From NCBI GenBank assembly GCA_030611805.1, contig JAUWPB010000001.1, positions 24,765 to 88,764 on the forward strand: 64,000 bases of DNA, written 5' to 3'. The notes beneath the pieces are model-generated. The model was not told where the DNA came from. It made no database searches and worked only from the letters and a program-made list of their open reading frames with translations. Source of the DNA: Nanobdellota archaeon. GTDB lineage: Archaea > Nanobdellota > Nanobdellia > Pacearchaeales > GW2011-AR1. The position numbers and the translations under genes are program-made. Positions within the stretch are counted from its first letter, which is position 1. Every line of letters starts with the position of its first letter. This document shows positions 15,114-52,623 of this stretch, one piece after another.

Positions 15114-15433
15114 GGAAGAAAGAAGACGTGGGGGTTTTTAAAATATTCGGGAAAGGTTTATTTTATTAATTAATTTATCAACTATTCTCTTACTATCACC
15201 ACAATTTCAATTTTCGCAGTTCTAGAATTGCTACTAATTGTCAAAGTTGAATTTTACTGGCTCTTTTTAGAGCTCCAATAAAAGAGCGTGTGGCCCAGCC
15301 ACTTATTAAAGTTAGCTAGGAATATTATAAAGAAAAATTTATTTTTATATTTAACTATTTAAAATTTTGATGGCTTTTTCATATTTTTTATTGATTTCTG
15401 CTATCTGTTTTTCTCTTTCTTTTTGCAAATTAT

Positions 15434-16165
15434 TCAGAGATAATCTTCTAAAATTTTCGGCGCGACGCCTACGGCGTCCAAAACAACCACCCGACCATTG
15501 TCACTGGAATCAGCAAGACTGCCAAACCTGGAATTCAGGTAGTCATTCCTGTTCAAGTAAACCCTCGACAACCCATTCTCTTTTGTGTAAAGAGTTTTTG
15601 TCTGGTTTCCTAATTGAATTGTATTATTTTGATGAGCAAATCTTTTATCATTAATTATTTTTGTATCTTGTCCAATTTTCAAAAGTAAACCATATTTATT
15701 TTTAGAATTATTATCTTTAACTAATTCTAATCCAGAAATTCTTAAGGGATTTTCAGAAGAAAATTCATATTTTTCTTCTTGAACTTGTTTTACTAAATTT
15801 TCTAAAATATATTTGTTAGCATCGTAAGTTGGTATCCCTGTTCTTAAAATTATCTCTCGAACATCTGTGTAAAAAGAGTTATCAAAAAAATTATTTGTAT
15901 CAACAGAAGAATAAATTCTTTCAGTATCTTCTAATAAAATTACTTTTTGGGATTCTGGAAGAGATAAATTTGCTTCATTGTTAAATAAAAAGTTAGAACC
16001 TCGTCCATTTTCACAATCAATTCCATTCATTATTTTTTTGCAAGCTAAACTATTTTCTCCAAATTTTTCTCTTGTTTTTGCTTTTGTTTCTTGATAAATT
16101 TCACTTCCAGCAATAAAATATCTGTCCATTGGAACTTTAACTTTTGGTATTAGTATTTCTTTCAT
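15434..16165 (-). CDS. Hypothetical protein
   Basis: ORF track; 3' end includes GC-rich hairpin gacgcc-tac-ggcgtc. Confidence 0.35.
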   Translation of the reverse strand: MKEILIPKVKVPMDRYFIAGSEIYQETKAKTREKFGENSLACKKIMNGIDCENGRGSNFLFNNEANLSLPESQKVILLEDTERIYSSVDTNNFFDNSFYTDVREIILRTGIPTYDANKYILENLVKQVQEEKYEFSSENPLRISGLELVKDNNSKNKYGLLLKIGQDTKIINDKRFAHQNNTIQLGNQTKTLYTKENGLSRVYLNRNDYLNSRFGSLADSSDNGRVVVLDAVGVAPKILEDYL

Positions 16166-20362: not shown

Positions 20363-20926
20363 TTATCTTATGATTTCTTCTTCTCTGAAAATATGGTCTA
20401 AAATATTATACATTAAATGAAAAGAATTTATAATTAGGACAATATTTCTTGAAGAATTCAATGTTTTATTCCCATGAACAAGATTGCTTCTCACCCTATA
20501 AAGAACTTCAATAATTTCTAATAAATTGCTTTTATCATTAATCCTTATGGAAGGTCTTGTTTTTGGTGCAGGAGTCATATCTATTAATGGTTGATTTTCC
20601 AACTCTTTAAATAAAGCTTCTATCCAAACATTACAAGAATCTTTGAATGTTAAAAATAAATCTTGGTAAGTTGAACAAAAAAATTCTCTTTGTTTCCATA
20701 TTCTTGATTCAGTTGGACTCATCAAACCTATCATGGCTTCAAATGGAACCATAACTGAAACAAGACCTACTGCTTTATCATATGCTTCTGGATTAGGATT
20801 TTTCCCTAAACCTTTTTTTAAATTCTGTTTCGCAGACGCTTCAGACATAAATAATTTTATAAGTTCTATCATGTCATTCTCCAAATAAATATTATTTCTT
20901 ATAATTGTCATCTTCCTCCACACCAC
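20363..20926 (-). CDS. HEPN-like protein (Rx4-6H motif), last gene of RM-linked operon
   Basis: YRVRSNLVHG near C-terminus fits R-x4-6-H HEPN signature; overlaps upstream nuclease gene by 19 nt. Confidence 0.35.
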   Translation of the reverse strand: MVWRKMTIIRNNIYLENDMIELIKLFMSEASAKQNLKKGLGKNPNPEAYDKAVGLVSVMVPFEAMIGLMSPTESRIWKQREFFCSTYQDLFLTFKDSCNVWIEALFKELENQPLIDMTPAPKTRPSIRINDKSNLLEIIEVLYRVRSNLVHGNKTLNSSRNIVLIINSFHLMYNILDHIFREEEIIR

Positions 20927-21555
20927 TCACAACTATCTTTAGGACAATCAGAGTTTAATAATTTAATTGCTTTTTTCCATACTTTCTCTGCACTTTCCAC
21001 ATCAACTTTCATCTTAACTAACTCAGTATCAAAGATAACTTCTCCAGTTGCCATAACTTCTTTGGGAATGTAAAACAATAGGAAAAAATAATCTTCTGTT
21101 TTGTATCCGTTCTTTCTTAAAAGAAAATTGTAAATATTTTGTTGTTGTCTGTAATGTTCTGCTGTGTCCTCTTTTAGTGGATAGCCTCGTGTCTTGTAGT
21201 CCAATACAATCAACTTTTTTCCTTTTACAAGGATATTATCAACTGCTCCGTGTAGTTCGTTTCCATCTTTATCTGTAAAAGAAACACCTTTGAAATTGCT
21301 TTGCCAGATTTTTAATTTTTCTTTATCTGTAAATAATTTCATTCCTTTGCATTCCCCATTCTCGCAAATTTCAGGAGGCAATTTTCCTTGTTCCATAAAT
21401 TTATTAAAATGAACTTTTAGAATTTTATCCATTCCATTTGGAAGGCTTGGGAATATTCCTGCTGGTCGTTTCCAAACTTTATGCTGTGCTAACCAAAAAC
21501 AACGAGGACATTCTTTCATTAGATTTAATGTTGAGGGCGATAGTTTGAATGTCAT
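20908..21555 (-). CDS. Cas4/RecB-like PD-(D/E)xK nuclease with Fe-S cysteine cluster
   Basis: N-terminal CPRC, catalytic GAVDNILV...IVLDYKTRG (D...D-x-K), QQQNIYNF (QxxxY), C-terminal CPKDSCEWC. Confidence 0.5.
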   Translation of the reverse strand: MTFKLSPSTLNLMKECPRCFWLAQHKVWKRPAGIFPSLPNGMDKILKVHFNKFMEQGKLPPEICENGECKGMKLFTDKEKLKIWQSNFKGVSFTDKDGNELHGAVDNILVKGKKLIVLDYKTRGYPLKEDTAEHYRQQQNIYNFLLRKNGYKTEDYFFLLFYIPKEVMATGEVIFDTELVKMKVDVESAEKVWKKAIKLLNSDCPKDSCEWCGGR

Positions 21556-21556
21556 T

Positions 21557-22801
21557 TTAATTGAAAATTATTTCTTTTTGCAATAAATTTTCTATTTTCA
21601 TTGAAGAATTATTTAAGTTTTGATTATACTCTTCTAACTTTTCATAATCTTTGACAATTTCTTTAATGTTGTTATTCAATTTTATTATAGAGATTTTAAT
21701 TATATCTAAAATTTTTGTTAATGGAAGAACAGACAAATCTGAACTTGAAACATATTTTAAAAATATTGGTTCTAAATAATACTTTAAAAACATCAAATAA
21801 ATTTTTTCATCTTCTTCTGAATTTATATTCAGTTCTTTTTTTATTTCATCCTTTAATAATAGAAGCATAGCATTAGTATTTGTTGCATAATTTCCTATTG
21901 GAAGATATTCTAATTTTCCAGCGTCCCCCCTCGTGATTATATGTAACCCCTGCTTCATTTTTACCGCATGTATTTTTTCTTCAAAAGGAACTATTCCATG
22001 AATATTTCTAAATGAACCTGATAAAACATTAATTTTTTCTTTTGAATTTACTAATCCTTGGCTTCTCTTATATATTCCCTCTTCACTTAATGCATCATTT
22101 CTACTGACATATTTTAAAAAATATGAAAGCATCTTTTCAGATTCAAATTGGTTATCAAACTCAAAAGATTTCTCCTTTATTTTTTTTATAACTTCAATTT
22201 TTTTCCTTAAGTTATTTTTTAGATGATATACTCTTTCATATAATTCTAATTGTTTTTTCTGTATTTTTATCTCTGGAACCTCTAAATCTACTTCATTAAT
22301 GATTTTTAACGGAATGGTGGATAACCCTTCTCGATTCACTAAATTACTAAATAATGGATTAAATCTCATATAAAACCATTTTAAATCTAAACCATCAAAA
22401 TTAGAATATTTTAATTTTATTTTAGAATCTTCTTGTTTAAAGAATGTAAAAATTGAGGTAGTTAAGCTAAACAAGGGGTATTTTTCAGAACTTCTATAAG
22501 ATAATTTTCCCGCATTACCACATCTAATCATAGTTATACATCCTTCTTTATTTATGAAATATCTTATTTTATTCTTCTCAATATAATGATTTTTTTCTTT
22601 AATATCTTCTGGAGTTAGAAAATTTGGGACAAAACCAAATAATCCTTCTTTAGAATCTGACCCAGATAGGACAGAAATTTTCTCGAATTTTTCTAAATAT
22701 GGCAAAAATTTGTATGTTTCTCTTTCTGTTAATTCAGGCATATTTTTAGTATTGGCTCCTCGAAAAGGGGTAAACATATCTTTAAATTTGATAATTTCCA
22801 T
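21557..22801 (-). CDS. Restriction-modification specificity (S) subunit with two target-recognition domains (BcgI-B-like / HsdS-like)
   Basis: Duplicated TRD-associated motifs ITMIRCGNAGKLSY and IITRGDAGKLEYLP with intervening coiled-coil spacers. Confidence 0.6.
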   Translation of the reverse strand: MEIIKFKDMFTPFRGANTKNMPELTERETYKFLPYLEKFEKISVLSGSDSKEGLFGFVPNFLTPEDIKEKNHYIEKNKIRYFINKEGCITMIRCGNAGKLSYRSSEKYPLFSLTTSIFTFFKQEDSKIKLKYSNFDGLDLKWFYMRFNPLFSNLVNREGLSTIPLKIINEVDLEVPEIKIQKKQLELYERVYHLKNNLRKKIEVIKKIKEKSFEFDNQFESEKMLSYFLKYVSRNDALSEEGIYKRSQGLVNSKEKINVLSGSFRNIHGIVPFEEKIHAVKMKQGLHIITRGDAGKLEYLPIGNYATNTNAMLLLLKDEIKKELNINSEEDEKIYLMFLKYYLEPIFLKYVSSSDLSVLPLTKILDIIKISIIKLNNNIKEIVKDYEKLEEYNQNLNNSSMKIENLLQKEIIFN

Positions 22802-22802
22802 T

Positions 22803-24884
22803 TTAAGACCCTATTATTTTTTTTAATTCTTCTTCTAATTCTTTTTTGGTGATATATCTTGGTTCGTATGGTCTTAACCAATACTCTGGTAACAAGTTGA
22901 AATAATTTTCTTTAAATAAATTCTTAATTGGAAGAAACATTACTTTCTTCATCTTTACTTCTTCCCCCTTTTCCGTAATCCATGTTACAAATTTTCCATC
23001 ATCATCGTGACCTAACCATCCTCCTTCTAATATTCCTTCTTTCTCTTCACCTTTTGTATTAACCCAACCAGAAATTTCATCATGCAACCAACCATTCCTA
23101 TTATTTCTTAATTTAGTTGGAAATCTTTTATCGGAATTAGCTAACCCATCATTGTCAATAATGTAAATCCAAATCGGATTTTTTTGTTTCTTTGTTTCAT
23201 TTTCACTTCTTTTAGTAAAAAATAAAGCATAAGTTTTTTCTTTAGTATATGGTGCAAAAGCAAATTTTGGTAGAGAAACGATTGCATTAATTTCACATCT
23301 TCCTAAAAGCCATTTTCTAAGAACTCCAAAAGTTGGATTTTCTAAAACACCATCTGGAAGAATTATACATGCTTTACCCCCAATTTTTAATAAATCTAAT
23401 ACCTTACAAAGAAATGCTATTTCTGTTCTATTTGAACTAATTGCATCTGTATTTGCTTTTATTGTTCCATTACCATATGGGGGATTAGTAATAATGTAAT
23501 CGTATTTTTCATTCTTCCATTTTTGTTTTGGTCTCAAGGTATTATCAACAAACATATTAGTATGTCCATCTCCCACAAGAAACATATTCAATTTAGTTCT
23601 TTGGATGTTCTCCTCTCTGACATCTACACCATAAAAACATTCCTTAGAAAGAAATTTTATTGCATCCTTATCTAAAGTTTTACTTACTTCATAATTATTT
23701 TTTAATACTTTAAAACTCTCAGTCAAGAATCCACCTGTTCCACAAGCCAAGTCAAGAATTTTAAATCTCCTATCTTTATTATAAACGATTTCCCCTTTTA
23801 ATAATAGTTTAGAAAATATGTGTGTGTAATGTCTCCTTGTAAAATACTCTCCAAAATCTTTTTTCTCTTTACTTGAGGCGAACATTTCATAAACTGCACC
23901 AAATAAATCAAAACCAGTTCCATGTAAGGGACCCATAGAAGTTATAACATCATATATTTGTTTAACATCAACTTTATCAATTAAAGGATTTTTTCCTGCT
24001 TCTCCAGAGATGTTAACCTTAACAGTTTCCATTAAATCTTTAAATTCGGTGAAGTTAGTTTCTCTCTCAAGTCTTCCAATATACTCAGACAAATTTGCTA
24101 CAATCTTACTTTCATTTTCATCGGAACACTCTGTCCAATAAATCTTAGTTCTATCTTTTTTTGTTTCTATTTGTTCTTTCTCTTCAAAAAATTTGAGTGA
24201 AACAAACCCAATTGTAAAATCAATCTTTTCTTGATTATTCTTGAAATTAATATTCCTATAAATGGTTGCTAATTCCCATAATTTCTTATTAAAAATGGCT
24301 TCAGAAATAGCCGATAGTGAATCAACATTGGTTCTTATGTTATCAAGAAATTTATCTTTATCTAATCTATTTTTAATTAAACGAAATATATCTATTGTTT
24401 GAAATTCTCTTATTGGATTATTATTTAACTTTATTTCTTTCCCTGTTGTAGAATTATAGAAGATGGTTGTTTTACAATTTGTAACAATAAAATAAGGTAG
24501 TTTTAATTTTTTAGATTTTCTCTCTCCTTGGTTTATTGCATCTTTCCATTCCGTATCTCCTACTGAACAGTTATCCTTTACTTCAGAATAAGCAACCAAA
24601 TTTTCTACGAATTGTTTTTGATTATTAGTTTCTTGGTCAAATTCAAATTCTGAAATTAATAGGTCTGGTCTCTTAAAGTCTGTGTACTCTGAAAAGGTTG
24701 TGTCATTGACTATTTGTCTTAAAGGAATACTTAACTGCCCAACTAAAATATCATGGATTAATCTTGTTACTGTTAAGGCTTCTCTCCTTGTCTTCTTTAC
24801 CATATTATAATTAGAATCATTAAGGGTATTTAAATTGCGTGGTTTCATATTTTTACTTTTAGGAGGTAACAAAAATCCTTTCAT
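22803..24884 (-). CDS. Type IIB/IIG restriction-modification enzyme (N-terminal PD-ExK endonuclease fused to gamma-class N6-adenine methyltransferase)
   Basis: PDLLI...SEVKD nuclease motif; motif I ILDLACGTGGFL; motif IV ITNPPYGNG. Confidence 0.7.
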   Translation of the reverse strand: MKGFLLPPKSKNMKPRNLNTLNDSNYNMVKKTRREALTVTRLIHDILVGQLSIPLRQIVNDTTFSEYTDFKRPDLLISEFEFDQETNNQKQFVENLVAYSEVKDNCSVGDTEWKDAINQGERKSKKLKLPYFIVTNCKTTIFYNSTTGKEIKLNNNPIREFQTIDIFRLIKNRLDKDKFLDNIRTNVDSLSAISEAIFNKKLWELATIYRNINFKNNQEKIDFTIGFVSLKFFEEKEQIETKKDRTKIYWTECSDENESKIVANLSEYIGRLERETNFTEFKDLMETVKVNISGEAGKNPLIDKVDVKQIYDVITSMGPLHGTGFDLFGAVYEMFASSKEKKDFGEYFTRRHYTHIFSKLLLKGEIVYNKDRRFKILDLACGTGGFLTESFKVLKNNYEVSKTLDKDAIKFLSKECFYGVDVREENIQRTKLNMFLVGDGHTNMFVDNTLRPKQKWKNEKYDYIITNPPYGNGTIKANTDAISSNRTEIAFLCKVLDLLKIGGKACIILPDGVLENPTFGVLRKWLLGRCEINAIVSLPKFAFAPYTKEKTYALFFTKRSENETKKQKNPIWIYIIDNDGLANSDKRFPTKLRNNRNGWLHDEISGWVNTKGEEKEGILEGGWLGHDDDGKFVTWITEKGEEVKMKKVMFLPIKNLFKENYFNLLPEYWLRPYEPRYITKKELEEELKKIIGS

Positions 24885-26128
24885 TCTTCCACTTCCTTTT
24901 CTATAATAAACTCTCCTCTAATACCCAACTCATTCACTTCTTGAATCACAACACAAATATTATGGCAGAGAACTTTCAAAAGTAATTCATTGATTTGTGC
25001 TTGTTTAATTTTGCTACGAAGATTATCTTTAAATTTAGTTTTAATCATATGAAAAACAGTTTCTACATTACTTCTTTTATGATAATATTTTTTAAAATCT
25101 TCATTCTTATACATAAAATAATAATACATTTTTTTCCAAATTGGTGAACCTCCTGCTTTACCAGTTACATTTTTCTTGAATGGAATGTAGGGAACAGCAC
25201 CTACATTGCTGATAAGCTCTAAGTTCTTTTTTGAACTATAAGCTTTGTCACAACAAACATCACCCATCTTAAATTGCTTAGCTGTTTCATTGACAAGTTT
25301 AGTTAGTTGAGGACTATCATTTTCGTGACCATCTGTAATTTCTGCACTTGTAATAATGTTTGTTTTATTTCCACAAATAATATGGGCTTTCATCCATAAT
25401 CTGTATTTATTTTTTTTACCCCATTTATAATCAAAATATCTTGCAAATCTACAAGTTGAAAAACCAGAGCTATCTGCAGAGAAAGAAGATTCAACAGAAC
25501 TTAGAGGAGAAGAACTAAGTTTAATCAATTCTTTCAAAATTTTTGTTAGTTCTTTTTTTTGCATAAAATTGCTAATGGTGGGATAAGTGCAAACATTCTC
25601 AACTAAACCCATTTCTTTAGCAATTTTCATATCTGACATAAATCTTCTTAATGAAAAAGTAGAATAAACTTTTAATGCAGATGCAAAAACCATTTCTGAA
25701 AAGGGTAATGTTGGTCTACCAAATTTATATTCTGGTTGTTCAATATTTTTACATAATTCTTTTAAAAGTTTTAAGAAAAATAGCTTTTCATTTGTTTGGG
25801 CATTATCATAAGCTTTCCATTTCTGAGAATATCCTATTCTTACTCTCTTTGTTTGAGATATATTTCCCTCTATGTCTATCGTTCTTTGAATAAATAATTC
25901 TACAGCTATTATGTGTTTGCATCTTCCGTGTCGTATCCTACAATCCAGACAATTACATTGTGGTTTATGTCCATTAAAATAAACCTCATAAAAACCTTTA
26001 CCAGATTGAGAAGGAACTCTCCATTTATCTTCAAGCTTTTTTATTTTTAAGTCTTTGGATATTAATTCTCCTCGTTTGTATCGTGTCAATTTCTTCCAGT
26101 TTGTTTTCATAGTATATTCAGGTACCAC
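24881..26128 (-). CDS. SWIM zinc-finger + DDE transposase (IS4/IS5/ISH3-type, DDE_Tnp_1) translationally coupled to the RM gene
   Basis: N-terminal CNCLDCRIRHGRCKH (CxCx_nCxH); DDE region with DVCCDKAYSS and Y-x2-R-x3-E-x6-K signature YHKRSNVETVFHMIK; stop TGA overlaps ATG of RM gene (ATGA). Confidence 0.7.
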   Translation of the reverse strand: MVPEYTMKTNWKKLTRYKRGELISKDLKIKKLEDKWRVPSQSGKGFYEVYFNGHKPQCNCLDCRIRHGRCKHIIAVELFIQRTIDIEGNISQTKRVRIGYSQKWKAYDNAQTNEKLFFLKLLKELCKNIEQPEYKFGRPTLPFSEMVFASALKVYSTFSLRRFMSDMKIAKEMGLVENVCTYPTISNFMQKKELTKILKELIKLSSSPLSSVESSFSADSSGFSTCRFARYFDYKWGKKNKYRLWMKAHIICGNKTNIITSAEITDGHENDSPQLTKLVNETAKQFKMGDVCCDKAYSSKKNLELISNVGAVPYIPFKKNVTGKAGGSPIWKKMYYYFMYKNEDFKKYYHKRSNVETVFHMIKTKFKDNLRSKIKQAQINELLLKVLCHNICVVIQEVNELGIRGEFIIEKEVEE

Positions 26129-32291: not shown

Positions 32292-32333
32292 TTTCTAATC
32301 TAATAAAGTTTATTTTTAAATATTTATGTAAAA

Positions 32334-32723
32334 TTGGGAAAAACCATTTCTCTCCTAAACATATTTAAATTAGATACATCATATTATAATATGGCTCCAA
32401 CATATGCTCGACCTAAAACTGTTCCTTTGACTAAAGAAGAAATTAAAGGCAAGTATGAAGAGATTAAAGAAGAACTGCAAGAAGTTTTGGACTGGCAAAA
32501 AGAAGAGGAAAGTAAAATTAATAATCTGGAGTTTTCGCCTCAAAAAAGAGGGGCGGCAAAAAGAGCTTTGAAAAAAGCTGCGTGGAGGATTGATACTGTT
32601 CAGGGCCAAATAATTTATTGGAGTTGTAGATTAAAAGGCGAGAGTCATTTTAAAGCAAATATTGAGAAGAATGAATATTGGGCGAAGTGTAAGGAGAAAA
32701 AGATTGAAATTAACCTAAGGTAA
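32334..32723 (+). CDS. Hypothetical protein
   Basis: ORF track only. Confidence 0.3.
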   Translation: MGKTISLLNIFKLDTSYYNMAPTYARPKTVPLTKEEIKGKYEEIKEELQEVLDWQKEEESKINNLEFSPQKRGAAKRALKKAAWRIDTVQGQIIYWSCRLKGESHFKANIEKNEYWAKCKEKKIEINLR

Positions 32724-32759
32724 ATTGCTTATTGGAAGTTTAAGTAGAAAAAAATTATA

Positions 32760-33016
32760 AATTTCTATTGGTACCTTGCTTATTTCTGAGTCCTTTTCAG
32801 AAGAAGGTGGCACCTCCCCATTATGTAAAATACATTCTTCTAATTGGTTCTTTCTCAATTTTTCTCTTACTAAATCAACACATTCTGGCCAAAAATCTTT
32901 TGCACTTCTTGGGGTAGGAGTACTACCAGAATAAATAAATTTCCCATTAAGCTCTAATAGATACCATGACCTGTTCCATTGCCATAAGTATAAACATACA
33001 AATCCAAATGGTCTTT
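32760..33016 (-). pseudogene. Possible frameshifted gene fragment
   Basis: Two adjacent reading frames (MGEENSEKDHLDLYVYTYGNGTGHGIY* and ...LLELNGKFIYSGSTPTPRSAKDFWPECVDLVREKLRKNQLEECILHNGEVPP...) with no start in the longer frame. Confidence 0.2.
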
Positions 33017-33038
33017 TTCTGAATTTTCTTCTCCCATT

Positions 33039-33389
33039 TTACAAATCAATAACCCCTTCTTTTGTTAATGCTGCAAACCTGATTCCAACTGGGAGATTAA
33101 TTAAAGAAGAAATTAAAGCCATGTGTTGTTTGCCGTCGCCAGATGCAAGACTTAATGCAACTTCTGTTCCGTTAAATTTTCCTTTAAGTTTTATTGAAAA
33201 TTCATCTTTTAATTCTTTTAATTTTTTGTCTAAATCAACTTTGATAAATTCAAATTCTTTTTCATGCTTGAAACTTTCTGCAAAATCTCCTCCAAGAAGA
33301 ATCACTTTATCCCATTCTCCGTGTTTCATTAATCCAGAGACCTGTGCCCAGGTTCCTTTTCCTGTTGAGAGTAGTGCTACTAATTCCAT
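33039..33389 (-). CDS. Hypothetical protein
   Basis: ORF track only. Confidence 0.3.
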   Translation of the reverse strand: MELVALLSTGKGTWAQVSGLMKHGEWDKVILLGGDFAESFKHEKEFEFIKVDLDKKLKELKDEFSIKLKGKFNGTEVALSLASGDGKQHMALISSLINLPVGIRFAALTKEGVIDL

Positions 33390-44118: not shown

Positions 44119-44814
44119 ATGAATTTCATAAAAAAGATTTTTGATGGAAAAATTGATGAAGGGGTGCATTTACAATTTCAAAAATTTAGCAAAGGAGAAT
44201 TTCTGAATCGGGCGGTGATTGAGGCAAGGAAAACCGGGAAGGGTTATTCAATTAAAACTTCGGCTGAGTTTGTTAATGGATTGGTCAGGATTGTTGCTGA
44301 GAAGTTGGGCGAAGAGCGTGCAAGAGTTACAGGTGCGGTTGTTTCTACAAGTGATTTAACAGGGGAGCTGGAGTTTCATGACAAGAAACAGTTTCAGGGT
44401 GTTAAGAGATATTTGATTGATAAAGAAATGTCTGGAAAAGAGATAATTGAATTGCTGGATAAATTTCCAAAAACATTTTTTGCATTGAGTTTTGAGGGAG
44501 GAGATAGTATTTTGAAAACAAAACCAAAAGCCCCTAAATCTGCAAAAGCAAAAAGTAAAGATAAAAAAGCAAAACCAGATTTTTGCAGATTGAAAACAAC
44601 TGACAAGGAATTAGTAAATAGTTTTGTTTTTGAGAAGCCGGATTTTAAGAAAGCAGAGATAACTCATACTTTTTTTATTGACAAAATAATTCCTCCAGAG
44701 GGAGAGAGTGATTTTGTAAAGATTCGTGAAATGGCAAAAAGAAGCGGCAAGATTGTTAGAGAAGCTTTGATTGACGAGGTTGAGATGAAGAAAGAATTTG
44801 AGTTTGAGGCATAG
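44119..44814 (+). CDS. Hypothetical protein
   Basis: ORF track only. Confidence 0.3.
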   Translation: MNFIKKIFDGKIDEGVHLQFQKFSKGEFLNRAVIEARKTGKGYSIKTSAEFVNGLVRIVAEKLGEERARVTGAVVSTSDLTGELEFHDKKQFQGVKRYLIDKEMSGKEIIELLDKFPKTFFALSFEGGDSILKTKPKAPKSAKAKSKDKKAKPDFCRLKTTDKELVNSFVFEKPDFKKAEITHTFFIDKIIPPEGESDFVKIREMAKRSGKIVREALIDEVEMKKEFEFEA

Positions 44815-44823
44815 GAAGATTTT
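44804..44823. repeat. 20-nt direct repeat TTGAGGCATAGGAAGATTTT (copy 1)
   Basis: Identical copy at 45136..45155. Confidence 0.8.
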
Positions 44824-44848
44824 TAAATAAACTTTCTTCAGGGAGAAT

Positions 44849-45139
44849 ATGAAATTAGGTTATTTTATCCCAAAAATAGAGTCATTTGTGCCAATTGTAT
44901 CTGGAAGGAACATGGCTCAAGCAATGATTCAAAATCCTACTCAAAGAGATTTAGAAGCTTACGGAAAGGACTTAGGGGCGGTTTCAAGAAATGTTTGTCA
45001 AATTCAAGAAGCAAAAAGAGTTGCATTATCAGGGTTTTGTGCACTTGCTATAAATCCTTTAATTGGAGCAGGAGTGTGGGCAGCATATAGTTACGGCATG
45101 GATTTAATTACAAAGTATATAGAAAAAGATAGAACTTGA
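44849..45139 (+). CDS. Hypothetical small protein flanked by 20-nt direct repeats
   Basis: ORF track. Confidence 0.3.
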   Translation: MKLGYFIPKIESFVPIVSGRNMAQAMIQNPTQRDLEAYGKDLGAVSRNVCQIQEAKRVALSGFCALAINPLIGAGVWAAYSYGMDLITKYIEKDRT

Positions 45140-45155
45140 GGCATAGGAAGATTTT
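45136..45155. repeat. 20-nt direct repeat TTGAGGCATAGGAAGATTTT (copy 2)
   Basis: Identical to 44804..44823. Confidence 0.8.
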
Positions 45156-45407
45156 TCTTATAAACTATATTGAAGAATAGTAATAACCAATTGAACATGT
45201 TTTTTTCTGCATTAACTCCTTCTATTAATTCTACTAAATCATACATTCCTTTTGCATAAGAAAGATTAATCTTTTCATGTCTTGTCAACACTTATTTTCT
45301 GGTAAAGAACTCTCTCAAAACACTCACCGAATGTTTTATAAATCAACTTTTTCTCCTTATTTTATTCCAGGGATTAAATAAAATGTTATCCGCAACAATA
45401 TTGAGAA

Positions 45408-46346
45408 ATGCCTACAAGAAAATCACCACGAAAAGGAAGTTTGCAGTTTTGGCCGAGAAAGCGGGCCACTAAATTTTTGCCTAGAGTGAACTGGGATGCG
45501 ATTGATTCTGGAAAAAACCTCAAGGGATTTATTTGTTACAAAGCAGGCATGGCTTCAGGATATGTAAAAGACAATACTCCTGATTCTATGACTAAGGGGA
45601 AGAAAATCATTATTCCTTTGACAATTCTTGAATGCCCTCCTTTAAAGATATTCTCTGTCAGATTTTATAAAAACGGCAAGGTTAGTAAAGATGTGCTGAC
45701 AGAAAATCTGGACAAAGAACTGAAAAGAAAACTAAAGCTTCCGAAAAAAAGCAAGGGAAAAATTGAGGATGTCAAAGATTATGATGATGTTAAAGTTATA
45801 GGCTATTCTATTGTTAAAAAAACCGGGTTGAAAAAGAAACCAGATTTGATTGAGATTGGACTTGCTGGAAGTGTTGAAGAAAAAATTAATTTTATTAAAG
45901 AAAATTTAAGCAAGGAAATTTCTGTTCTGGATGTTTTTGAAAAAGGTCAGCTTGTTGATTTAAGGGGTTTGACAAAAGGAAAGGGTTTTTCAGGACCTGT
46001 AAAAAGATTTGGAATTAAGCTGAAATTCCACAAGTCAGAAAAAGGTCGTAGAAGACCGGGAAGCCTGGGACCATGGCATCCTGCAAGAGTTATTTTCAGA
46101 GTTCCTATGGCAGGACAGCTTGGGATGTTTACAAGAGTTATTTATAATAATAAAATAATTGACATCGGAAAATCATCTGATAAGGAATTACAAAATATTA
46201 AAAATTATGGGAATATTAAAACAGATTATATTCTTGTGAGAGGCTCTATTCAGGGTTCTGCAAAAAGGCAATTAATTATCACGCATCCCTTAAGACAAAC
46301 TAAAAAACAAATTAAAAAAGATTATGAATTATTGGAGATAAGATAA
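45408..46346 (+). CDS. rpl3: Ribosomal protein L3
   Basis: PRKGSLQFWPRKRA... Confidence 0.9.
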   Translation: MPTRKSPRKGSLQFWPRKRATKFLPRVNWDAIDSGKNLKGFICYKAGMASGYVKDNTPDSMTKGKKIIIPLTILECPPLKIFSVRFYKNGKVSKDVLTENLDKELKRKLKLPKKSKGKIEDVKDYDDVKVIGYSIVKKTGLKKKPDLIEIGLAGSVEEKINFIKENLSKEISVLDVFEKGQLVDLRGLTKGKGFSGPVKRFGIKLKFHKSEKGRRRPGSLGPWHPARVIFRVPMAGQLGMFTRVIYNNKIIDIGKSSDKELQNIKNYGNIKTDYILVRGSIQGSAKRQLIITHPLRQTKKQIKKDYELLEIR

Positions 46347-46681
46347 TGAAATATCAAGTTAATAAAAAAACGCTAGATGAAGGAATTCATGAACAAATAA
46401 AAATGGAAATTAATAATTTAGAAAGTAATTTAATAAAACATGTTAATTTTGTGAAAGGCCACATAAGAATAGAAAATGAGATAGAACTTGGAAAAGGCAA
46501 AGAAATAAAAGAATTAGCTATTAAAAATTTTCCACATCATGTAATTGGGATTGGAAATCGTCTTGCATGTTTAGAGAGTTTTGGTTATTTTTTGGATGTA
46601 AAAGAAGTATTCAAATATCAAAAAGTGGTTTCAGAGATAATAAATAATTGCTTGGAGGACCTTAAAAATTATCAGCTATAA
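46346..46681 (+). CDS. Hypothetical protein intercalated between rpl3 and rpl4
   Basis: ORF track; stop/start overlaps with both neighbours. Confidence 0.4.
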   Translation: MKYQVNKKTLDEGIHEQIKMEINNLESNLIKHVNFVKGHIRIENEIELGKGKEIKELAIKNFPHHVIGIGNRLACLESFGYFLDVKEVFKYQKVVSEIINNCLEDLKNYQL

Positions 46682-46682
46682 A

Positions 46683-47525
46683 ATGAAAGCAAATATATTA
46701 ACAATTGAAGGGAAAAAGAAAACTGCAATTGATTTGCCTAAATGTTTTTCTGCTGAGATTAGGGAAGATATTGTTGCGAAGGTTTTAGAAGCTAAAAAAA
46801 CAAAACAGCCTTATGCACCGTCGCCTGTGGCAGGAAAGCAACATTCAGCAAGTGGAAAAATAAAACACAGGAGACATGTTTGGAAAACTCATTATGGCCA
46901 GGGGATTTCAAGAATTCCAAGAAAAATAATTTCAAAAAAAGGGAGCAGATTTAATTGGATAGGTGCTGAAGTTTCTTCAACTCGTGGAGGGAGAAGAGCC
47001 CACCCTCCAAAAATTCTTTCAATGATTAATACTAAAAGAATAAATAAAAAGGAATTGAAAACTGCTTTAATTTCTGCAATAAGTGCAACAGCGAATGAAA
47101 AAGAGATGATTAAAAGATATGAAAGACTGAAAAATAAAAAGATAGATAATCTTCCATTAATTGTTGAACCAAAATTAGTTTCTCTGAAAACAAAAGATTT
47201 GATTTCAAGTTTGAAAAAAATTCTTGGCAAGGATTTGTTTGAATTGGCTTTGCAGAAAAAATCAGTTAGAGCAGGGAAGGGAAAATTAAGAGGAAGGAAA
47301 TACAAATCAAATGCAGGATTATTATTAGTCACCGGGAAAGATGAAAAATTAAAAACAAATGCTTTTGAAGTTGTTGAAGTTAAATTTTTAGGAGTTGCTG
47401 ATTTGGCGAGAGGAGGAGTTGGGAGATTGACTATTTATACTGAAGGTGCAATTAGAGAACTTGTAAACAAGTTCGATAGTTCGTCTAAAAGCCAAACTAA
47501 AGAATCTGGAGAAAAATTAAAATGA
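46683..47525 (+). CDS. rpl4: Ribosomal protein L4
   Basis: Archaeal/eukaryal L4 (L1e) N-terminal region. Confidence 0.85.
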   Translation: MKANILTIEGKKKTAIDLPKCFSAEIREDIVAKVLEAKKTKQPYAPSPVAGKQHSASGKIKHRRHVWKTHYGQGISRIPRKIISKKGSRFNWIGAEVSSTRGGRRAHPPKILSMINTKRINKKELKTALISAISATANEKEMIKRYERLKNKKIDNLPLIVEPKLVSLKTKDLISSLKKILGKDLFELALQKKSVRAGKGKLRGRKYKSNAGLLLVTGKDEKLKTNAFEVVEVKFLGVADLARGGVGRLTIYTEGAIRELVNKFDSSSKSQTKESGEKLK

Positions 47526-48175
47526 TAGTATTAGACATGGAATCAAGTGGATTGGATACAGGAAAATGCGGAATCTGGCAAATAGGTGCAATAGAATTAG
47601 AAAATCCTGAAAACCAGTTTTTAGAGGAAGCGCGAATTGATGATGAAGACCAAGTAGAAGAAGGAGCATTAAAGGTTACAGGAAAAACAGAAGAAGAATT
47701 AAGAGACAAAAATAAACAATCACAAAAACAGTTGATTTTAAATTTTATGGAATGGGCAAAAACTTGTAAAACAAAATTAATTGTAGGGCACAATGTAGGG
47801 TGGGATTTTTTCTTTATGAGAAATAAATGTTGCAAATATAATGTGGTAACTGAATTTATGGAGGTAGTAGGTCATAATGTAATAGATACTTATTCTGTTG
47901 CACAAATAAAATATTTAAAAATAAATGGAAATTTTGCATTTAAAGAAAATGGTCTAGGGAAAATGGGTCTTAAAAGAGTATTAAAATTATGTGGATTAAA
48001 AGATAATAGAATGCATTTAAATGATAAGGAAGAGGTAGATAATGAAGGAACTCCTCACAACGCACTTGAAGATGCTAAACTTACAGCAGAATGTTTTTCA
48101 AGATTAATATATGGGAAAAATCTTTTTCCAGAATATGCTGAATATGAAATACCAGAGGAGTTGAAAAAAGAATGA
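47522..48175 (+). CDS. DEDDh 3'-5' exonuclease (DnaQ-like) embedded in r-protein operon
   Basis: Exo I VLDMESSGLD, Exo II GHNVGWDFFFM, Exo III HNALEDAKLTAECF. Confidence 0.7.
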   Translation: MIVLDMESSGLDTGKCGIWQIGAIELENPENQFLEEARIDDEDQVEEGALKVTGKTEEELRDKNKQSQKQLILNFMEWAKTCKTKLIVGHNVGWDFFFMRNKCCKYNVVTEFMEVVGHNVIDTYSVAQIKYLKINGNFAFKENGLGKMGLKRVLKLCGLKDNRMHLNDKEEVDNEGTPHNALEDAKLTAECFSRLIYGKNLFPEYAEYEIPEELKKE

Positions 48176-48293
48176 AAGCAAATCATAGATTTTCATTCAT
48201 CCAAACACAAAGAAAGGTGTTACAGAGAAAGGGATCATTCCCTATAGGGGCGTCAGCATCTTTGATGCAAGTAAATATCGGGGGTTATTTTTA

Positions 48294-48530
48294 ATGAAAC
48301 CAATAGTAACTGAAAAAGCTGTTATGATGATTGAAGCACAGAATATTTTGACATTTGAAACAGGAAAAGATAAAACAAAAACTGAAATAAAAAAAGAAAT
48401 TGAAGAATTGTTTGACGTGAAAGTTGAAAAAGTGAGGAGTTTGATTAGAAGAAATAAAAAATGTGTTTATGTTAAATTAAATAAAAAATTTCCAGCTATT
48501 GATGTGGCGACGAAGCTGGGGTTAATGTAA
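48294..48530 (+). CDS. rpl23: Ribosomal protein L23
   Basis: Size, position before rpl2, sequence pattern. Confidence 0.8.
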   Translation: MKPIVTEKAVMMIEAQNILTFETGKDKTKTEIKKEIEELFDVKVEKVRSLIRRNKKCVYVKLNKKFPAIDVATKLGLM

Positions 48531-48531
48531 A

Positions 48532-49230
48532 ATGGGAAAAAGAATAATTCAACAGCGAAGAGGAAGGGGAACTCACACTTATAAAGTTCGGAGAAAGGCA
48601 TTTAGATTCAAGCTTCAGTATCCACCAAGACTTTCCGGAGAAGGAAGTGTGATTAAACTTTTTAATTCAGCAGGACATAGTGCTCCTTTGGCAAAAATAA
48701 AATATAGTGACGGAACTTTTTTTGTGCCTGCGTTTAAAGGCATGGTTGAAGGACAGAAAATAAGTTTTGAAGATGCAAAAATAAATAAAGGAAATATTAT
48801 GAAATTGAAAGACATTCCAGTAAAAACTAAAATTTATAATATTGAATCAAGACCAGGGGATGGGGGGATGTTCATAAAGAGTGCTGGAAATTCTGCAGTT
48901 ATTAATAAAATTATTGGGAAAGATGTTTTTGTTTTAATGCCCTCAAAAAAAGAAAAAAAGTTTAATCAAAATTGCCGGGCAATTATTGGCATAGCTGCTG
49001 GAGCAGGCAGACTTGATAAACCTGTTATTAAAGCCGGGAAAAAGCATCATATTAAAAAGTCAAAAAGTAAATTATGGCCAAGGACATCTGCAGTAAAGAT
49101 GAATGTAATAGACCATCCTTTTGGTTCAGGAAGGGCGAAGAATGTGAAGAGCAAAATTGCCAAGAGAAATGCGCCTCCTGGAAGAAAAGTTGGATTAATA
49201 AGGCCTAGAAGAACAGGTAAAAAGAAATAA
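48532..49230 (+). CDS. rpl2: Ribosomal protein L2
   Basis: RRGRGTHTYKVRRK...GAGRLDKPVIKAG. Confidence 0.9.
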   Translation: MGKRIIQQRRGRGTHTYKVRRKAFRFKLQYPPRLSGEGSVIKLFNSAGHSAPLAKIKYSDGTFFVPAFKGMVEGQKISFEDAKINKGNIMKLKDIPVKTKIYNIESRPGDGGMFIKSAGNSAVINKIIGKDVFVLMPSKKEKKFNQNCRAIIGIAAGAGRLDKPVIKAGKKHHIKKSKSKLWPRTSAVKMNVIDHPFGSGRAKNVKSKIAKRNAPPGRKVGLIRPRRTGKKK

Positions 49231-49231
49231 A

Positions 49232-49627
49232 ATGGAAATACAAAAAAAACAATTTGCATACAAAGGCAAGGCAATTGAAGAATTAAAATCTTTAGATGTA
49301 AGAGAATTTGCAAAGTTAGTCAGGTCAAGGCAGAGAAGAACTATTTTGAGGAATTTCCAAAAGGTTGAGGATTTTATTAATCGGAGCAAGATAAAAATTG
49401 AAAGAAAAAAACCAATAAAAACTCATCAAAGAGATTTGGTTGTTGTTCCGGAGATGGTTGGATGGAAAATATTCATTTATAATGGAAATAAATTTGTTCC
49501 TGTGGAAGTTACAGGAGAAATGCTTGGACATAAATTTGGAGAGTTTGCCCCGACAAGAGCAAGGGTAAAGCATGGAAAAACCGGGGTAGGTGCAACTAAA
49601 GGAACTAAACACAAGGCTAAAAAATGA
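49232..49627 (+). CDS. rps19: Ribosomal protein S19
   Basis: NGNKFVPVEVTGEMLGHKFGEFAPTR. Confidence 0.9.
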   Translation: MEIQKKQFAYKGKAIEELKSLDVREFAKLVRSRQRRTILRNFQKVEDFINRSKIKIERKKPIKTHQRDLVVVPEMVGWKIFIYNGNKFVPVEVTGEMLGHKFGEFAPTRARVKHGKTGVGATKGTKHKAKK

Positions 49628-49968
49628 TAACTAATAAAATAACTGGGAAAAAATATGAAAAAGGTATTGGATTTTGTAGAGAAGAAAATATGCCAACTGC
49701 CCAAGAGATTATTTCCTGCTCTCCTTCTAAAATAACCACAATTCATTTTGGTGGTCAAAACATAACATATGAAGAATTAATTGAAAAAAATATTCTTCCT
49801 TATTTTGAAAAAGAAGCGATTAATTCTTGCGTTGTTTTTCCTCTTCAAACACCTTTTCCTATATGTGAACCCGCATCAACACAAGAATTAGAGATTATCA
49901 AAAGGAATCTCTCAAATAAAGGATTAGATGTTTTACTATATGATAAAACATTTGCAATTAGATTATAA
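49624..49968 (+). CDS. Hypothetical Cys-rich protein intercalated between rps19 and rpl22
   Basis: ORF track; overlaps rps19 stop. Confidence 0.4.
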   Translation: MITNKITGKKYEKGIGFCREENMPTAQEIISCSPSKITTIHFGGQNITYEELIEKNILPYFEKEAINSCVVFPLQTPFPICEPASTQELEIIKRNLSNKGLDVLLYDKTFAIRL

Positions 49969-49969
49969 A

Positions 49970-50728
49970 ATGGGAATTAATACAGAAAAACCAATGACAA
50001 AACAAGAATCAAAAAAACAAGGAGTAGTTGGTGCTATAAAACAAAAAATTGATTTGGCTAAAGTACCTGTTGAAAAGAAAACAGATGAAAAAAAAGATAA
50101 GCAATTAACTACTGGGAAAGTCTCTGAACCAAAAGATGAAGTAAAACCTGATTATAAAAACTTGGCACCCAAGGGTGTACACCACCGAGTAGGTCCAGAG
50201 GAAGGAGGTGCGAGTACCTCTTCGCCAAGTAGGTCTGAAAGAAGCCCTTCTGTAAAAGAAGATATAAACATAGAGGACAAAAAAAAGAAACCAATACAAA
50301 AAAAACCTGTTGTTAAAAAAACCGAGGCTGTTGTAAATGCAAGGAGTCTTCCAATCTCAACAAAATATTCTATGGCGATTTGCAGATTTATTAAAAACAA
50401 GAAAATTGGGAAAGCAATAGTTGATTTAGGACAAGTTATTACGAAGAAAAAAGCAGTACCAATGAAAGGCGAGATTCCTCATAAAAAAGGCAGAGGAATG
50501 ATGTCAGGAAGATATCCTAAAAAAGCTTCAGAGCATTTTATTGAAATATTGAAAAGCCTGCAAGCAAACGCTAATGCTAATGAAATAGAGAATCCGAGAA
50601 TTGTTGAAGCTGTTGCAAATCTTGCCTCAAGACCTTATGGGAGATTTGGAAGAATAAGGAAAAAGCGAACTCATGTTAAGTTAGTTGCTAAAAATAAATT
50701 AAATAAAGAAAAGGAGAATAGAAAATGA
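49970..50728 (+). CDS. rpl22: Ribosomal protein L22 with ~120-aa low-complexity N-terminal extension
   Basis: C-terminal ARSLPISTKYSMAICRFIKNKKIGKAIVDL...; start chosen at MGINTEK (track start 49928 overlaps upstream gene). Confidence 0.8.
   Translation: MGINTEKPMTKQESKKQGVVGAIKQKIDLAKVPVEKKTDEKKDKQLTTGKVSEPKDEVKPDYKNLAPKGVHHRVGPEEGGASTSSPSRSERSPSVKEDINIEDKKKKPIQKKPVVKKTEAVVNARSLPISTKYSMAICRFIKNKKIGKAIVDLGQVITKKKAVPMKGEIPHKKGRGMMSGRYPKKASEHFIEILKSLQANANANEIENPRIVEAVANLASRPYGRFGRIRKKRTHVKLVAKNKLNKEKENRK
50165..50180 (+). repeat. GC-rich 16-nt element GCACCCAAGGGTGTAC inside rpl22 (copy 1)
   Basis: Identical 16-mer at 51656..51671 inside rps3; both translate to APKGV. Confidence 0.7.
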
Positions 50729-51027
50729 GTTTAATTAATGTTAAAACAAAAATATATTGTAATTTTAAAATTGATGGGTATGTTGCTTGCTTAGAATATA
50801 CTGCCAATGAATCTCAAAAAGAAATTGGATTATTGGTTCCAAAAGAATTAAGGAGAAAAGACCAAGCTACTTCAAATGCTCTTAAATATTTATTCACTCA
50901 AAAAAAAGAAAGTCCTTTTATTGTAAATATAGGGGAACTAGAAGAAATTCTTTCTCCAAATTTTGTAGAAGATATTAAAAAATCAAATTTACCTAAAAAA
51001 ATTAAACAAAATATTCAAGGAATTTAA
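50725..51027 (+). CDS. Hypothetical protein intercalated between rpl22 and rps3
   Basis: ORF track; overlapping stops/starts. Confidence 0.4.
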   Translation: MSLINVKTKIYCNFKIDGYVACLEYTANESQKEIGLLVPKELRRKDQATSNALKYLFTQKKESPFIVNIGELEEILSPNFVEDIKKSNLPKKIKQNIQGI

Positions 51028-51752: not shown

Positions 51753-51962
51753 ATGGCAACTTTAAAATTCAAAGACATACAAAAATTAAGCAAACAAGAA
51801 AGAGAAAAGAAATTTAAGGAATTGAAAATGGAATTGATTAAATCAAAAGTTAAATCCTCAAAAACAGGGAGTTCAAAGATTAAGGAAATTAAAAAAATAA
51901 TTGCCAGAATACTCACGCTCAAAAAACACAATGGAAATATGTCCAAAATGTGGCTTGCCTGA
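51753..51962 (+). CDS. rpl29: Ribosomal protein L29
   Basis: MATLKFKDIQKLSKQEREKKFKELKMELIK. Confidence 0.8.
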   Translation: MATLKFKDIQKLSKQEREKKFKELKMELIKSKVKSSKTGSSKIKEIKKIIARILTLKKHNGNMSKMWLA

Positions 51963-52230
51963 GCAAGCATGTGTATGTGAACAGATTGTTAAAAGTTCGC
52001 AAAGAGTAAAGATAACGACAGACAGAAAGCGATATGGGAAAATCGTGACTGTTGTTACAGGATTCGAGAGTGGAATCAATGTGAAGAAAATCGCAAAGGC
52101 TCTGAAAAACGAGTTGGCCTGCGGTGGGACTTACAAGGGTAACATGATTGAACTCCAAGGAGACCACAGAAAGAAGATAAAAGAACTGCTGGTCAAGTTG
52201 GGGTTTGAGGAAGAATCAATCTCTGAATAA
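51901..52230 (+). CDS. eif1: Translation initiation factor aIF1 (SUI1)
   Basis: CPKCGLPEQACVCEQ...RKRYGKIVTVVTGFE...ELQGDHRKKIKELL; likely start at internal MEICPK (51931). Confidence 0.8.
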   Translation: MPEYSRSKNTMEICPKCGLPEQACVCEQIVKSSQRVKITTDRKRYGKIVTVVTGFESGINVKKIAKALKNELACGGTYKGNMIELQGDHRKKIKELLVKLGFEEESISE

Positions 52231-52260
52231 ACAAAAAGCATACACAAACAAAAAAATAAA

Positions 52261-52623
52261 ATGGAAAAAAAGAAAACAACAGAAGGAAAAATAGAGAAAA
52301 AATCAGAAGTAGTTGGAAATGTCTGCGATGACAGAAATTGCCATATCCATGGGAACTTAAAAACCAGAGGAAGAGTCTTTGAAGGAGAAGTTATCAGAAA
52401 GTTCCATAAGAGAATTACAATTGAATTTGAAAGAATGACTTATGTAAGAAAATATGAAAGATATAAAAAATCAAAAACAAAAATTCATGCACGGCTTCCT
52501 GTTTGTATGGAAGATGAAATCCATATTGGTGATTTAATAAAAGTGCAGGAATGCAGACCTTTGAGCAAGATAATTCATTTTGTGGTTATTGAGAAAATTA
52601 AATCAGGAGAAAATGGGAAATGA
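52261..52623 (+). CDS. rps17: Ribosomal protein S17
   Basis: Size/position and OB-fold pattern. Confidence 0.85.
   Translation: MEKKKTTEGKIEKKSEVVGNVCDDRNCHIHGNLKTRGRVFEGEVIRKFHKRITIEFERMTYVRKYERYKKSKTKIHARLPVCMEDEIHIGDLIKVQECRPLSKIIHFVVIEKIKSGENGK

Follow-up and report, generated by a model that had tools for sequence, protein, structure and literature searches.

We analysed a 64,000-nt stretch of the genome of a Nanobdellota archaeon (assembly GCA_030611805.1, contig JAUWPB010000001.1), hereafter called the window and used for all coordinates unless a locus is named, in which an ATG-initiated open reading frame (ORF) of 217 aa in the ORF listing lies between the genes for ribosomal proteins L4 and L23. 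An initial annotation of this DNA had described the ORF, which we refer to as EXO, as a DEDDh (DnaQ-like) 3'-5' exonuclease with three motifs that overlaps the rpl4 stop within a ribosomal protein (r-protein) operon, and both descriptions are confirmed here. The ATG of EXO shares the tetranucleotide ATGA with the TGA stop of L4 (47522-47525), the flanking genes match PF00573 and PF00276, and the gene itself contains the following features:

47522..48175, plus strand: EXO, DEDDh (DnaQ-like) 3'-5' exonuclease, assigned from its PF00929 match, predicted fold and homologs
47534..47557, plus strand: Exo I motif DMESSGLD (residues 5-12) with catalytic D5 and E7, both invariant in both alignments
47786..47818, plus strand: Exo II motif GHNVGWDFFFM (residues 89-99) with catalytic D95; G89, N91 and D95 are invariant in close homologs, and D95 also in the distant set
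48056..48091, plus strand: Exo III motif HNALEDAKLTAE (residues 179-190) with catalytic H179 and D184, both invariant in close homologs, which defines the DEDDh subclass
48113..48172, plus strand: C-terminal tail GKNLFPEYAEYEIPEELKKE, a subfamily hallmark seen in the alignments and in a high-confidence model

The Pfam RNase_T profile (PF00929), a check that the initial annotation had suggested, matches EXO significantly and over its whole length (E=1.3e-12, profile positions 1-164 of 164), with 49 bits against a gathering threshold of 24, and it also matches 50 of 53 members of the wider family. The five catalytic residues (D5, E7, D95, H179 and D184) never vary among 32 homologs with identities down to 50%; in a set of 53 members at greater distance (29-53% identity), D5, E7 and D95 still show no substitution and H179 is at least 90% conserved. 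DEDDh enzymes hydrolyse the 3'-terminal phosphodiester by a two-metal mechanism, in which His179 would be the implied general base. An AlphaFold (AF2) model built with the 32-homolog alignment reached a mean predicted local distance difference test score (pLDDT) of 95.7 and a predicted TM-score (pTM) of 0.91. In this model, the C-terminal tail packs on the EXO domain; this family-specific motif recurs in distant bacterial relatives, and a subclade of ~196-aa proteins lacks it. A Foldseek comparison of the model with the PDB returned 201 matches at E<=1e-3, the top hits all being DEDDh enzymes with probability 1.0 and TM-scores of ~0.6-0.75 (S. thermophilus DnaQ domain, Cap18, RNase T, PolC exo, Cas2-DEDDh, a TREX1 homolog and ExoI). 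EXO and its closest relative are separated by 14.5 synonymous and 9.5 non-synonymous differences (dN/dS 0.14), and in base composition the gene does not differ from its neighbours. Judged by its residues, EXO is a catalytically intact, stand-alone, single-domain DEDDh exonuclease under purifying selection.

The surrounding genes form the following series, where L098 denotes the locus of the closest relative:

45408..46346, plus strand: rpl3 (L3), the first recognisable r-protein gene of the operon (Pfam Ribosomal_L3, E=2.2e-60)
46346..46681, plus strand: inserted ORF of 111 aa between L3 and L4, lineage-specific and conserved only in L098
46683..47525, plus strand: rpl4 (L4), with its stop within the ATGA of the EXO start (PF00573, E=1e-19)
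48176..48293, plus strand: spacer of 118 nt between EXO and L23, mostly a strain-specific 111-nt insertion
48294..48530, plus strand: rpl23 (L23) (PF00276 Ribosomal_L23, E=1.8e-14)
48532..49230, plus strand: rpl2 (L2), with which the operon continues (tblastn synteny; the L098 gene call carries Ribosomal_L2_C)

Downstream of L23 the gene order is L2, S19, L22 and S3, and by this arrangement, from which co-expression is read, EXO is an internal cistron of the S10-type ribosomal operon in this genome. The initial annotation had also drawn attention to the spacer and its two hairpins; its length and the presence of small hairpins stand, and the spacer is a strain-specific insertion and no feature of the system. 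The inserted 111 nt (48182..48292) are flanked by a repeated junction AATGAAA and are absent from L098, where EXO overlaps L23, so that the insertion breaks the usual stop-start overlap of the two genes; it also supplies a GGGGG before the L23 ATG. We found no other copy of the insertion in the window or in the related loci and no match in Rfam, and the spacer folds only modestly better than shuffled sequences (z = -2.2; 7 of 200 shuffles fold equally well). A regulatory RNA, a terminator or a repeat was therefore rejected for this unique, strain-specific and weakly folding segment.

To place this arrangement among relatives, we mapped the window proteins by tblastn onto 97 loci, 17 from GTDB species representatives and 80 from metagenomes. 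The order L4-EXO-L23 was found in 72 of the 97 Pacearchaeota-type DPANN loci, a proportion that, like the other context percentages, is biased toward the lineage of the window since the loci were recovered with peptide patterns from close relatives. L4 and EXO overlap by ATGA in 57 of 69 loci, and the distance from EXO to L23 is at most 10 nt in 57 of 68 (median about -4 to +2 nt). EXO is thus a conserved gene in Pacearchaeota-type DPANN archaea, and the L4-EXO-L23 arrangement is common in metagenome-assembled genomes (MAGs) of this type and not unique to the window. The initial annotation had called for such a synteny survey, which bears out the conservation, and had thought the arrangement unusual; this impression stands insofar as our literature searches for the EXO subfamily or for L4-EXO-L23 found no paper describing either, which is no proof of absence, and fails insofar as the arrangement is widespread in the clade.

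The L4-EXO-L23 order in these 72 loci, usually with ATGA overlaps to both neighbours, favours the idea that EXO is a 3'->5' exoribonuclease that trims the 3' extensions of rRNA and/or tRNA precursors or degrades short RNA, and that it is made in step with the r-proteins. We consider this a serious possibility without holding it to be the probable one. Elsewhere, archaeal operons of the S10 type include genes for RNA processing, for example an RNase P subunit, which in many archaea occupies the position between L29 and S17. In the window, inspection of the L29-S17 interval (51753..52623) by eye identified only a SUI1/aIF1-like ORF (51901..52230), and an RNase P protein subunit was not apparent. 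CCA is not encoded in either of the window's tRNA genes, so that an enzyme trimming back to it in the manner of RNase T is not called for, and the clade keeps the exosome core: Cluster-2 DPANN retain Rrp4/41/42 (PMC7414124), for which reason we rejected EXO as an exosome replacement. With tRNA genes lacking CCA and a retained exosome core, no special need for an RNase T-like activity is apparent.

A further point against reading an RNA function from the position of EXO is that the operon hosts many unrelated inserted ORFs. Variable small ORFs fill the L3/L4 junction in 16 of 50 loci and the L23/L2 junction in 14 of 56; 43 of 69 such gap ORFs are singletons, and those between L3 and L4 are mostly unrelated. 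The window itself has three (46346..46681, 49624..49968 and 50725..51027), none of which has a match in Pfam, NCBIfam, PADLOC or PHROGs, and L098 carries two further ORFs between L2 and S19 on a 620-nt cassette (L098 11581..12218) that is not in the window. The operon is, in other words, a hot spot for variable small ORFs of ~100-115 aa. Given that it tolerates so many unrelated insertions, the position of EXO is weak evidence of its function. A comparison of window 44119..49627 with L098 6643..12615 (~99% identical) shows how unevenly this segment has diverged: no difference separates the two in L3, in the 111-aa ORF or in two ORFs further upstream, while EXO has 24 substitutions (dS 0.13) and L2 has 12 (dS 0.07), each beside an indel, and the L4 C-terminus of the window contains a 45-nt insertion relative to L098. 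Such mosaic divergence suggests recombinational import of operon segments. Just upstream of L3, a 231-aa ORF without a Pfam match (44119..44814, plus strand) keeps its place in more than 30 related loci (35-65% identity) and is possibly an uncharacterised gene that heads the operon.

EXO also occurs at other genomic addresses. The order apgM ... EXO-Gins51 (Gins51, a CMG helicase subunit: PF22090) was found in 10 of the 97 loci and in two further loci recovered from Gins51 (L102 and L105), thus in at least 12 loci. Here apgM and EXO are always separated by a gap of 41-448 nt, and EXO and Gins51 overlap or lie within 10 nt in seven of nine cases. Within the 70 nt upstream of EXO, an element resembling a B recognition element and TATA box (BRE/TATA-like), 'atagcaaTTATTAAAAA', is centred ~26 nt before the EXO ATG and conserved in 13 loci (L001, L005, L014, L038, L044, L045, L054, L058, L079, L082, L102, L104 and L105), on the basis of which we predict that EXO heads a leaderless transcript of two overlapping genes, EXO and Gins51. 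When Gins51 loci were sampled independently, EXO was nearby in three out of four. This repeated EXO-Gins51 bicistron, which places the same ortholog outside r-protein transcripts, speaks against a role in RNA maturation. The Gins51 site is flanked by L1-L10-P1 and S3Ae, and Gins51 is absent from this window. The 116-aa gene found before Gins51 in L103 and L104 does have an ortholog here (33039..33389, minus strand), which is divergent from L1 and is followed by ~750 nt (32292..33038) with neither a convincing ORF nor Gins51, which argues that the Gins51 site has been rearranged in this genome.

A second ribosomal home is the S13-S4-S11-RpoD/L18e-L13-S9 operon, where EXO was found in L012, L042 and L070, with L036 carrying it in inverted orientation. 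Wherever upstream sequence is available (three loci), EXO begins 11-25 nt after a tRNA-Leu gene (L012 3893..4591; L036 1490..2201; L070 1021..1621). Since this spacing is kept also when the two genes are turned round with respect to L18e, tRNA-Leu and EXO move as a unit. An independent insertion into a second ribosomal operon (S11-RpoD-tRNA-Leu-EXO-L18e-L13-S9), directly after a tRNA gene, again suits an RNA substrate. In L059, by comparison, the order is S15, a RecJ/GAN homolog (DHH, DHH_CID, DHHA1), EXO and aIF2alpha. The deeper-branching EXO copies are solitary, with neighbours as varied as genes for an S-layer protein, PEP synthase, deoxyhypusine synthase and transketolase.

These solitary copies with their own TATA-like promoter, together with the frequent relocation of the gene without loss, raise the possibility that EXO is a general oligonucleotide-degrading 'nano-nuclease', which would convert short RNA and DNA to mononucleotides for salvage, have no specific partner and use its address for constitutive expression. 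The high expression of an r-protein operon would suit bulk turnover, oligoribonucleases are detectable relatives, and the tandem fusions described below hint at an Orn-like dimer. Salvage would also make sense in an organism unable to make nucleotides, an argument from general knowledge of DPANN archaea. Nevertheless, we regard this explanation as improbable: the similarity to Orn is weak (2e-6) compared with that to DnaQ-type families, and the repeated tight overlap with L4/L23 or Gins51 exceeds the needs of a free-standing salvage gene.

Neighbour-joining trees of EXO (~215 columns) show the contexts interleaved, with Fitch parsimony counting 7-10 context switches over 30 bootstrap trees. 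The clade formed by the window, L098, L001 and L105, which includes both L4/L23 and Gins51 contexts, is monophyletic in 30 out of 30 bootstraps. We therefore rejected two ancient paralogs, one per context; in addition, none of the assemblies among the 17 GTDB hits yielded two EXO loci. Four EXO copies that are well conserved in other respects contain in-frame stops (L012 codon 106 TAG, where the stop replaces the invariant Tyr106; L059 codon 132 TGA; L084 codon 142 TAA; and L068), and three of the four lie outside the L4/L23 context. Three different stop codons in the three inspected copies led us to reject recoding, and the stops may reflect decay or assembly error.

We next turn to the affinities of the protein. 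The phage family PHROG_192 ('DNA polymerase exonuclease subunit') matches EXO at E=1.8e-23, the PADLOC model for CRISPR-associated DEDDh (PDLC01247) at E=2e-19 (68.6 bits, profile positions 1-138 of 139), the PADLOC 'Effector exonuclease' model at 7.6e-12, and the NCBIfam DnaQ and PolC models at 1e-13 to 1e-10 (DnaQ 2.6e-13), all of these NCBIfam matches being far below trusted cutoffs. The DnaQ equivalogs NF004316 and TIGR01406 cover only the N-terminal two-thirds (50.2 bits vs 196 and 43.6 vs 222.7, respectively), and RNase T (TIGR01298) reaches 15.9 bits vs a cutoff of 246.2 (E=0.008). In a search of the PDB, the family profile matched PolC exo (5e-19), a DnaQ domain (5e-17), Cap18 (1e-16), Cas2-DEDDh (1e-15), RNase T (9e-12), Pol III epsilon (6e-10) and oligoribonuclease (2e-6), while PDB RNase T against the single EXO sequence gave E=0.8. 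By these profile comparisons, the closest matches of EXO are DNA-acting DnaQ-type families and not RNase T or oligoribonuclease, whose profile E-values are 7 to 13 orders weaker. EXO falls below the DnaQ, PolC, RNase T and all other NCBIfam equivalog cutoffs and has no CRISPR DEDDh context, and is for these reasons best called a distinct subfamily. Some matches point the other way, toward RNA: the Pfam Rv2179c-like model (PF16473) is matched marginally by EXO (28.1 bits vs 27, overlapping the stronger RNase_T match) and by 49 of the 53 wider-family members (best 1.9e-10), and CAF1 is near threshold. EXO resembles RNase T, oligoribonuclease and the Rv2179c-like enzymes in its DEDDh superfamily, its size and a possible dimer, and RNase T is among its top five structural neighbours.

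The likeness to DnaQ and PolC exonucleases (Pol III epsilon; PolC exo 2p1j; PHROG_192) includes the DEDDh fold, all five catalytic residues, the strongest profile similarity and a similar stand-alone size of ~200 aa. Unlike Pol III epsilon, EXO belongs to an archaeal host that is taken to have no Pol III alpha for binding, and its C-terminal tail is unrelated to the alpha-binding tail of epsilon; unlike DnaQ and PolC, its genomic partners are L4/L23 or Gins51 and no polymerase. The CRISPR DEDDh enzymes (Cas2-DEDDh 8fy9/8fyc; S. thermophilus DnaQ domain 8h18/8h2f) are among its top structural and sequence relatives (Foldseek E=2.6e-8, TMt ~0.75). Together with the two PADLOC matches, the presence of Cap18 and Cas2-DEDDh among the top PDB relatives and the frequent changes of location, this could be taken to mean that EXO is a defence DEDDh, either trimming CRISPR prespacers or serving as a CBASS effector akin to Cap18, or else a gene of mobile or viral origin that landed in the operon by chance. 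We regard this as very improbable, and the defence reading is largely refuted by context. EXO is not fused to Cas2, no cas or CBASS neighbours were found in the inspected flanks of ~100 loci, in which the neighbours are ribosomal genes, Gins51 or apgM, and the gene behaves as a housekeeping gene in ribosomal or GINS operons, conserved under purifying selection and composed like its neighbours. A search of 2.9 million viral contigs yielded only two distant matches (25-31% identity).

A search of 5.8 billion proteins identified 833 EXO relatives, the named ones being called '3'-5' exonuclease' or 'DNA polymerase III epsilon subunit-like' and coming from MAGs labelled Pacearchaeota, Nanoarchaeota or 'archaeon'. 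In a profile search of 1.84 billion representatives, the number of clusters graded smoothly from 91 (E<=1e-30) over 399 (E<=1e-10) to 1,681 (E<=1e-3), and nearly all members are stand-alone proteins of ~200 aa. Two distant members are encoded on bacterial contigs, beside bacterial L27, GyrA and GAD-domain AspRS, and they share the tail 'F-RL-[YF]GKNL-EF--F-[IV]P--L' (sequences compared for the tail: P0190, P0198 and P0253). As the closest outgroups are on bacterial contigs, archaeal EXO is probably an offshoot of a largely bacterial subfamily and the gene was probably acquired from bacteria. Two relatives are tandem fusions of two exonuclease domains, P0121 (399 aa) and P0165 (386 aa), in each of which one active site is intact and the other degenerate (D5->H, E7->K and H179->N in domain 2 of P0121; E7->K, D95->S and loss of the His in domain 1 of P0165); a single-sequence AlphaFold model of P0121 reached a pLDDT of 34. 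Fusions that keep one dead site suggest that EXO acts as a dimer where one catalytic centre suffices. In a third relative, the bacterial P0271 (344 aa; locus L101 5001..6035), the exonuclease is fused to a PemK/MazF-type toxin domain, which is of an endoribonuclease type and therefore favours RNA as substrate.

Weighing these observations, we tentatively propose, with a probability of about 40%, that EXO is a growth-coupled, replisome-linked exonuclease acting on DNA 3' ends. By a two-metal DEDDh mechanism, EXO would trim DNA 3' ends that are single-stranded or frayed and would act as an accessory of the replication fork, functionally linked to GINS and the Cdc45-MCM-GINS (CMG) helicase; its ribosomal-operon address would serve only to couple its synthesis to growth rate. 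What the data show is the enzyme class, its intactness, its conservation and the gene arrangements, whereas the choice of DNA over RNA as substrate, and any interaction of EXO with GINS, is inference. The proposal draws on the DnaQ/PolC-type profile relatives, on the EXO-Gins51 pair as the sole small and specific operon, and on the adjacency to RecJ/GAN (Cdc45-like). GAN, the archaeal RecJ/Cdc45 homolog, is comparable to EXO as a nuclease genetically linked to GINS and lies next to it in L059, while its fold (DHH/DHHA1) is unrelated. GAN degrades with 5'->3' polarity, opposite to that of EXO. There is also precedent for a replication gene riding with ribosomal genes, in that archaeal PCNA-PriS-Gins15 is co-oriented with L44E-S27E-aIF2alpha-Nop10 (Berthon et al. 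2008, PMC2643942). EXO resembles this supercluster as a replication-linked gene co-oriented with translation genes, and in L059 it stands directly before aIF2alpha; the supercluster differs in having no S10-type operon, no DEDDh enzyme and no L4/L23 insertion with double overlap. The initial annotation had taken the ribosomal position to suggest a role in rRNA/tRNA 3' maturation, a step that is not supported in view of the Gins51 and RecJ/GAN homes, the DnaQ-type profiles, this precedent and the many operon insertions.

Several observations weigh against the proposed link to the replisome. Ribosomal operons account for 76 of the 86 classifiable contexts (72 S10-type and 4 RpoD/L18e), in the latter of which EXO follows a tRNA gene, and translational coupling to L4 and L23 implies an abundance like that of r-proteins, far beyond the needs of a proofreader. 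No polymerase partner was identified, and no polymerase gene lies within the window or the gathered loci. Archaeal PolB and PolD normally proofread their own products, and sequence similarity within DEDDh enzymes predicts substrate poorly. By structural comparison, EXO is no closer to DNA enzymes than to RNA enzymes (TM ~0.6 to both), Pol III epsilon ranks below RNase T in the PDB profile search, the Rv2179c-like model is matched across most of the wider family, and P0271 carries an RNase-type domain. In our judgement, the EXO-Gins51 operon, the GAN adjacency and the DnaQ affinity slightly outweigh the commoner, less specific ribosomal context. A bolder version of the replisome proposal holds that a bacterial-type DnaQ-like exonuclease was recruited via Gins51 into an archaeal CMG replisome, as a subunit that proofreads or processes 3' ends in trans, in a DPANN clade whose PolB was replaced by a bacterial Pol II-type enzyme, and that its move into the S10 operon hard-wired the coupling of replisome and ribosome. 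This version we consider unlikely. The B7 PolB of the clade is of bacterial origin, in parallel to EXO (PMC7544198), and an inactivation of B7 proofreading is not reported in the text of that study.

Other features of the window lie apart from EXO. On the minus strand, 15161..15320 is a full-length match to the Rfam RT-16 RNA (RF03019, 68.8 bits vs 50), and lies a short way upstream of Spt5/NusG (14381..14845) and L11 (13717..14415); its surroundings showed no sign of a reverse transcriptase, and Pfam has no match for the 243-aa ORF next to it (15434..16165). The similarity between the window and L098 ends at a tRNA-Ser gene (window 40643), beyond which L098 1..3166 encodes an integrase-like gene, an N6/N4 DNA methyltransferase and a TrbC/type IV secretion system (T4SS)-pilin-like gene, suggesting an integrated element at tRNA-Ser in L098. 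A cluster on the minus strand (20908..26128) comprises a PD-(D/E)XK nuclease-like protein, a 414-aa ORF without an assigned family, an N6 DNA methylase (Eco57I/MmeI-like) and a DDE transposase, and may be a mobile restriction-modification module.

As an enzyme class, EXO is ordinary; what is noteworthy is that it is fixed within an S10-type operon and has switched repeatedly between this place and a Gins51 operon. The gene is highly conserved and belongs to the core of a large clade that has not been cultivated, yet it has hardly been characterised, and present annotations go no further than '3'-5' exonuclease' or 'Pol III epsilon-like'. The switching between two precise addresses offers a tractable case of operon remodelling by recombination, and the case cautions against inferring function from membership of a ribosomal operon. 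Should EXO act on RNA, it would become a candidate for the missing exonuclease that trims 3' ends in archaeal rRNA maturation. Should its site of action be the replication fork, no DnaQ-type exonuclease before it would have been tied to a CMG helicase of the archaeal or eukaryote-like kind, and the reduced DPANN genomes would offer a clean case of a chimeric replisome, part bacterial and part archaeal.

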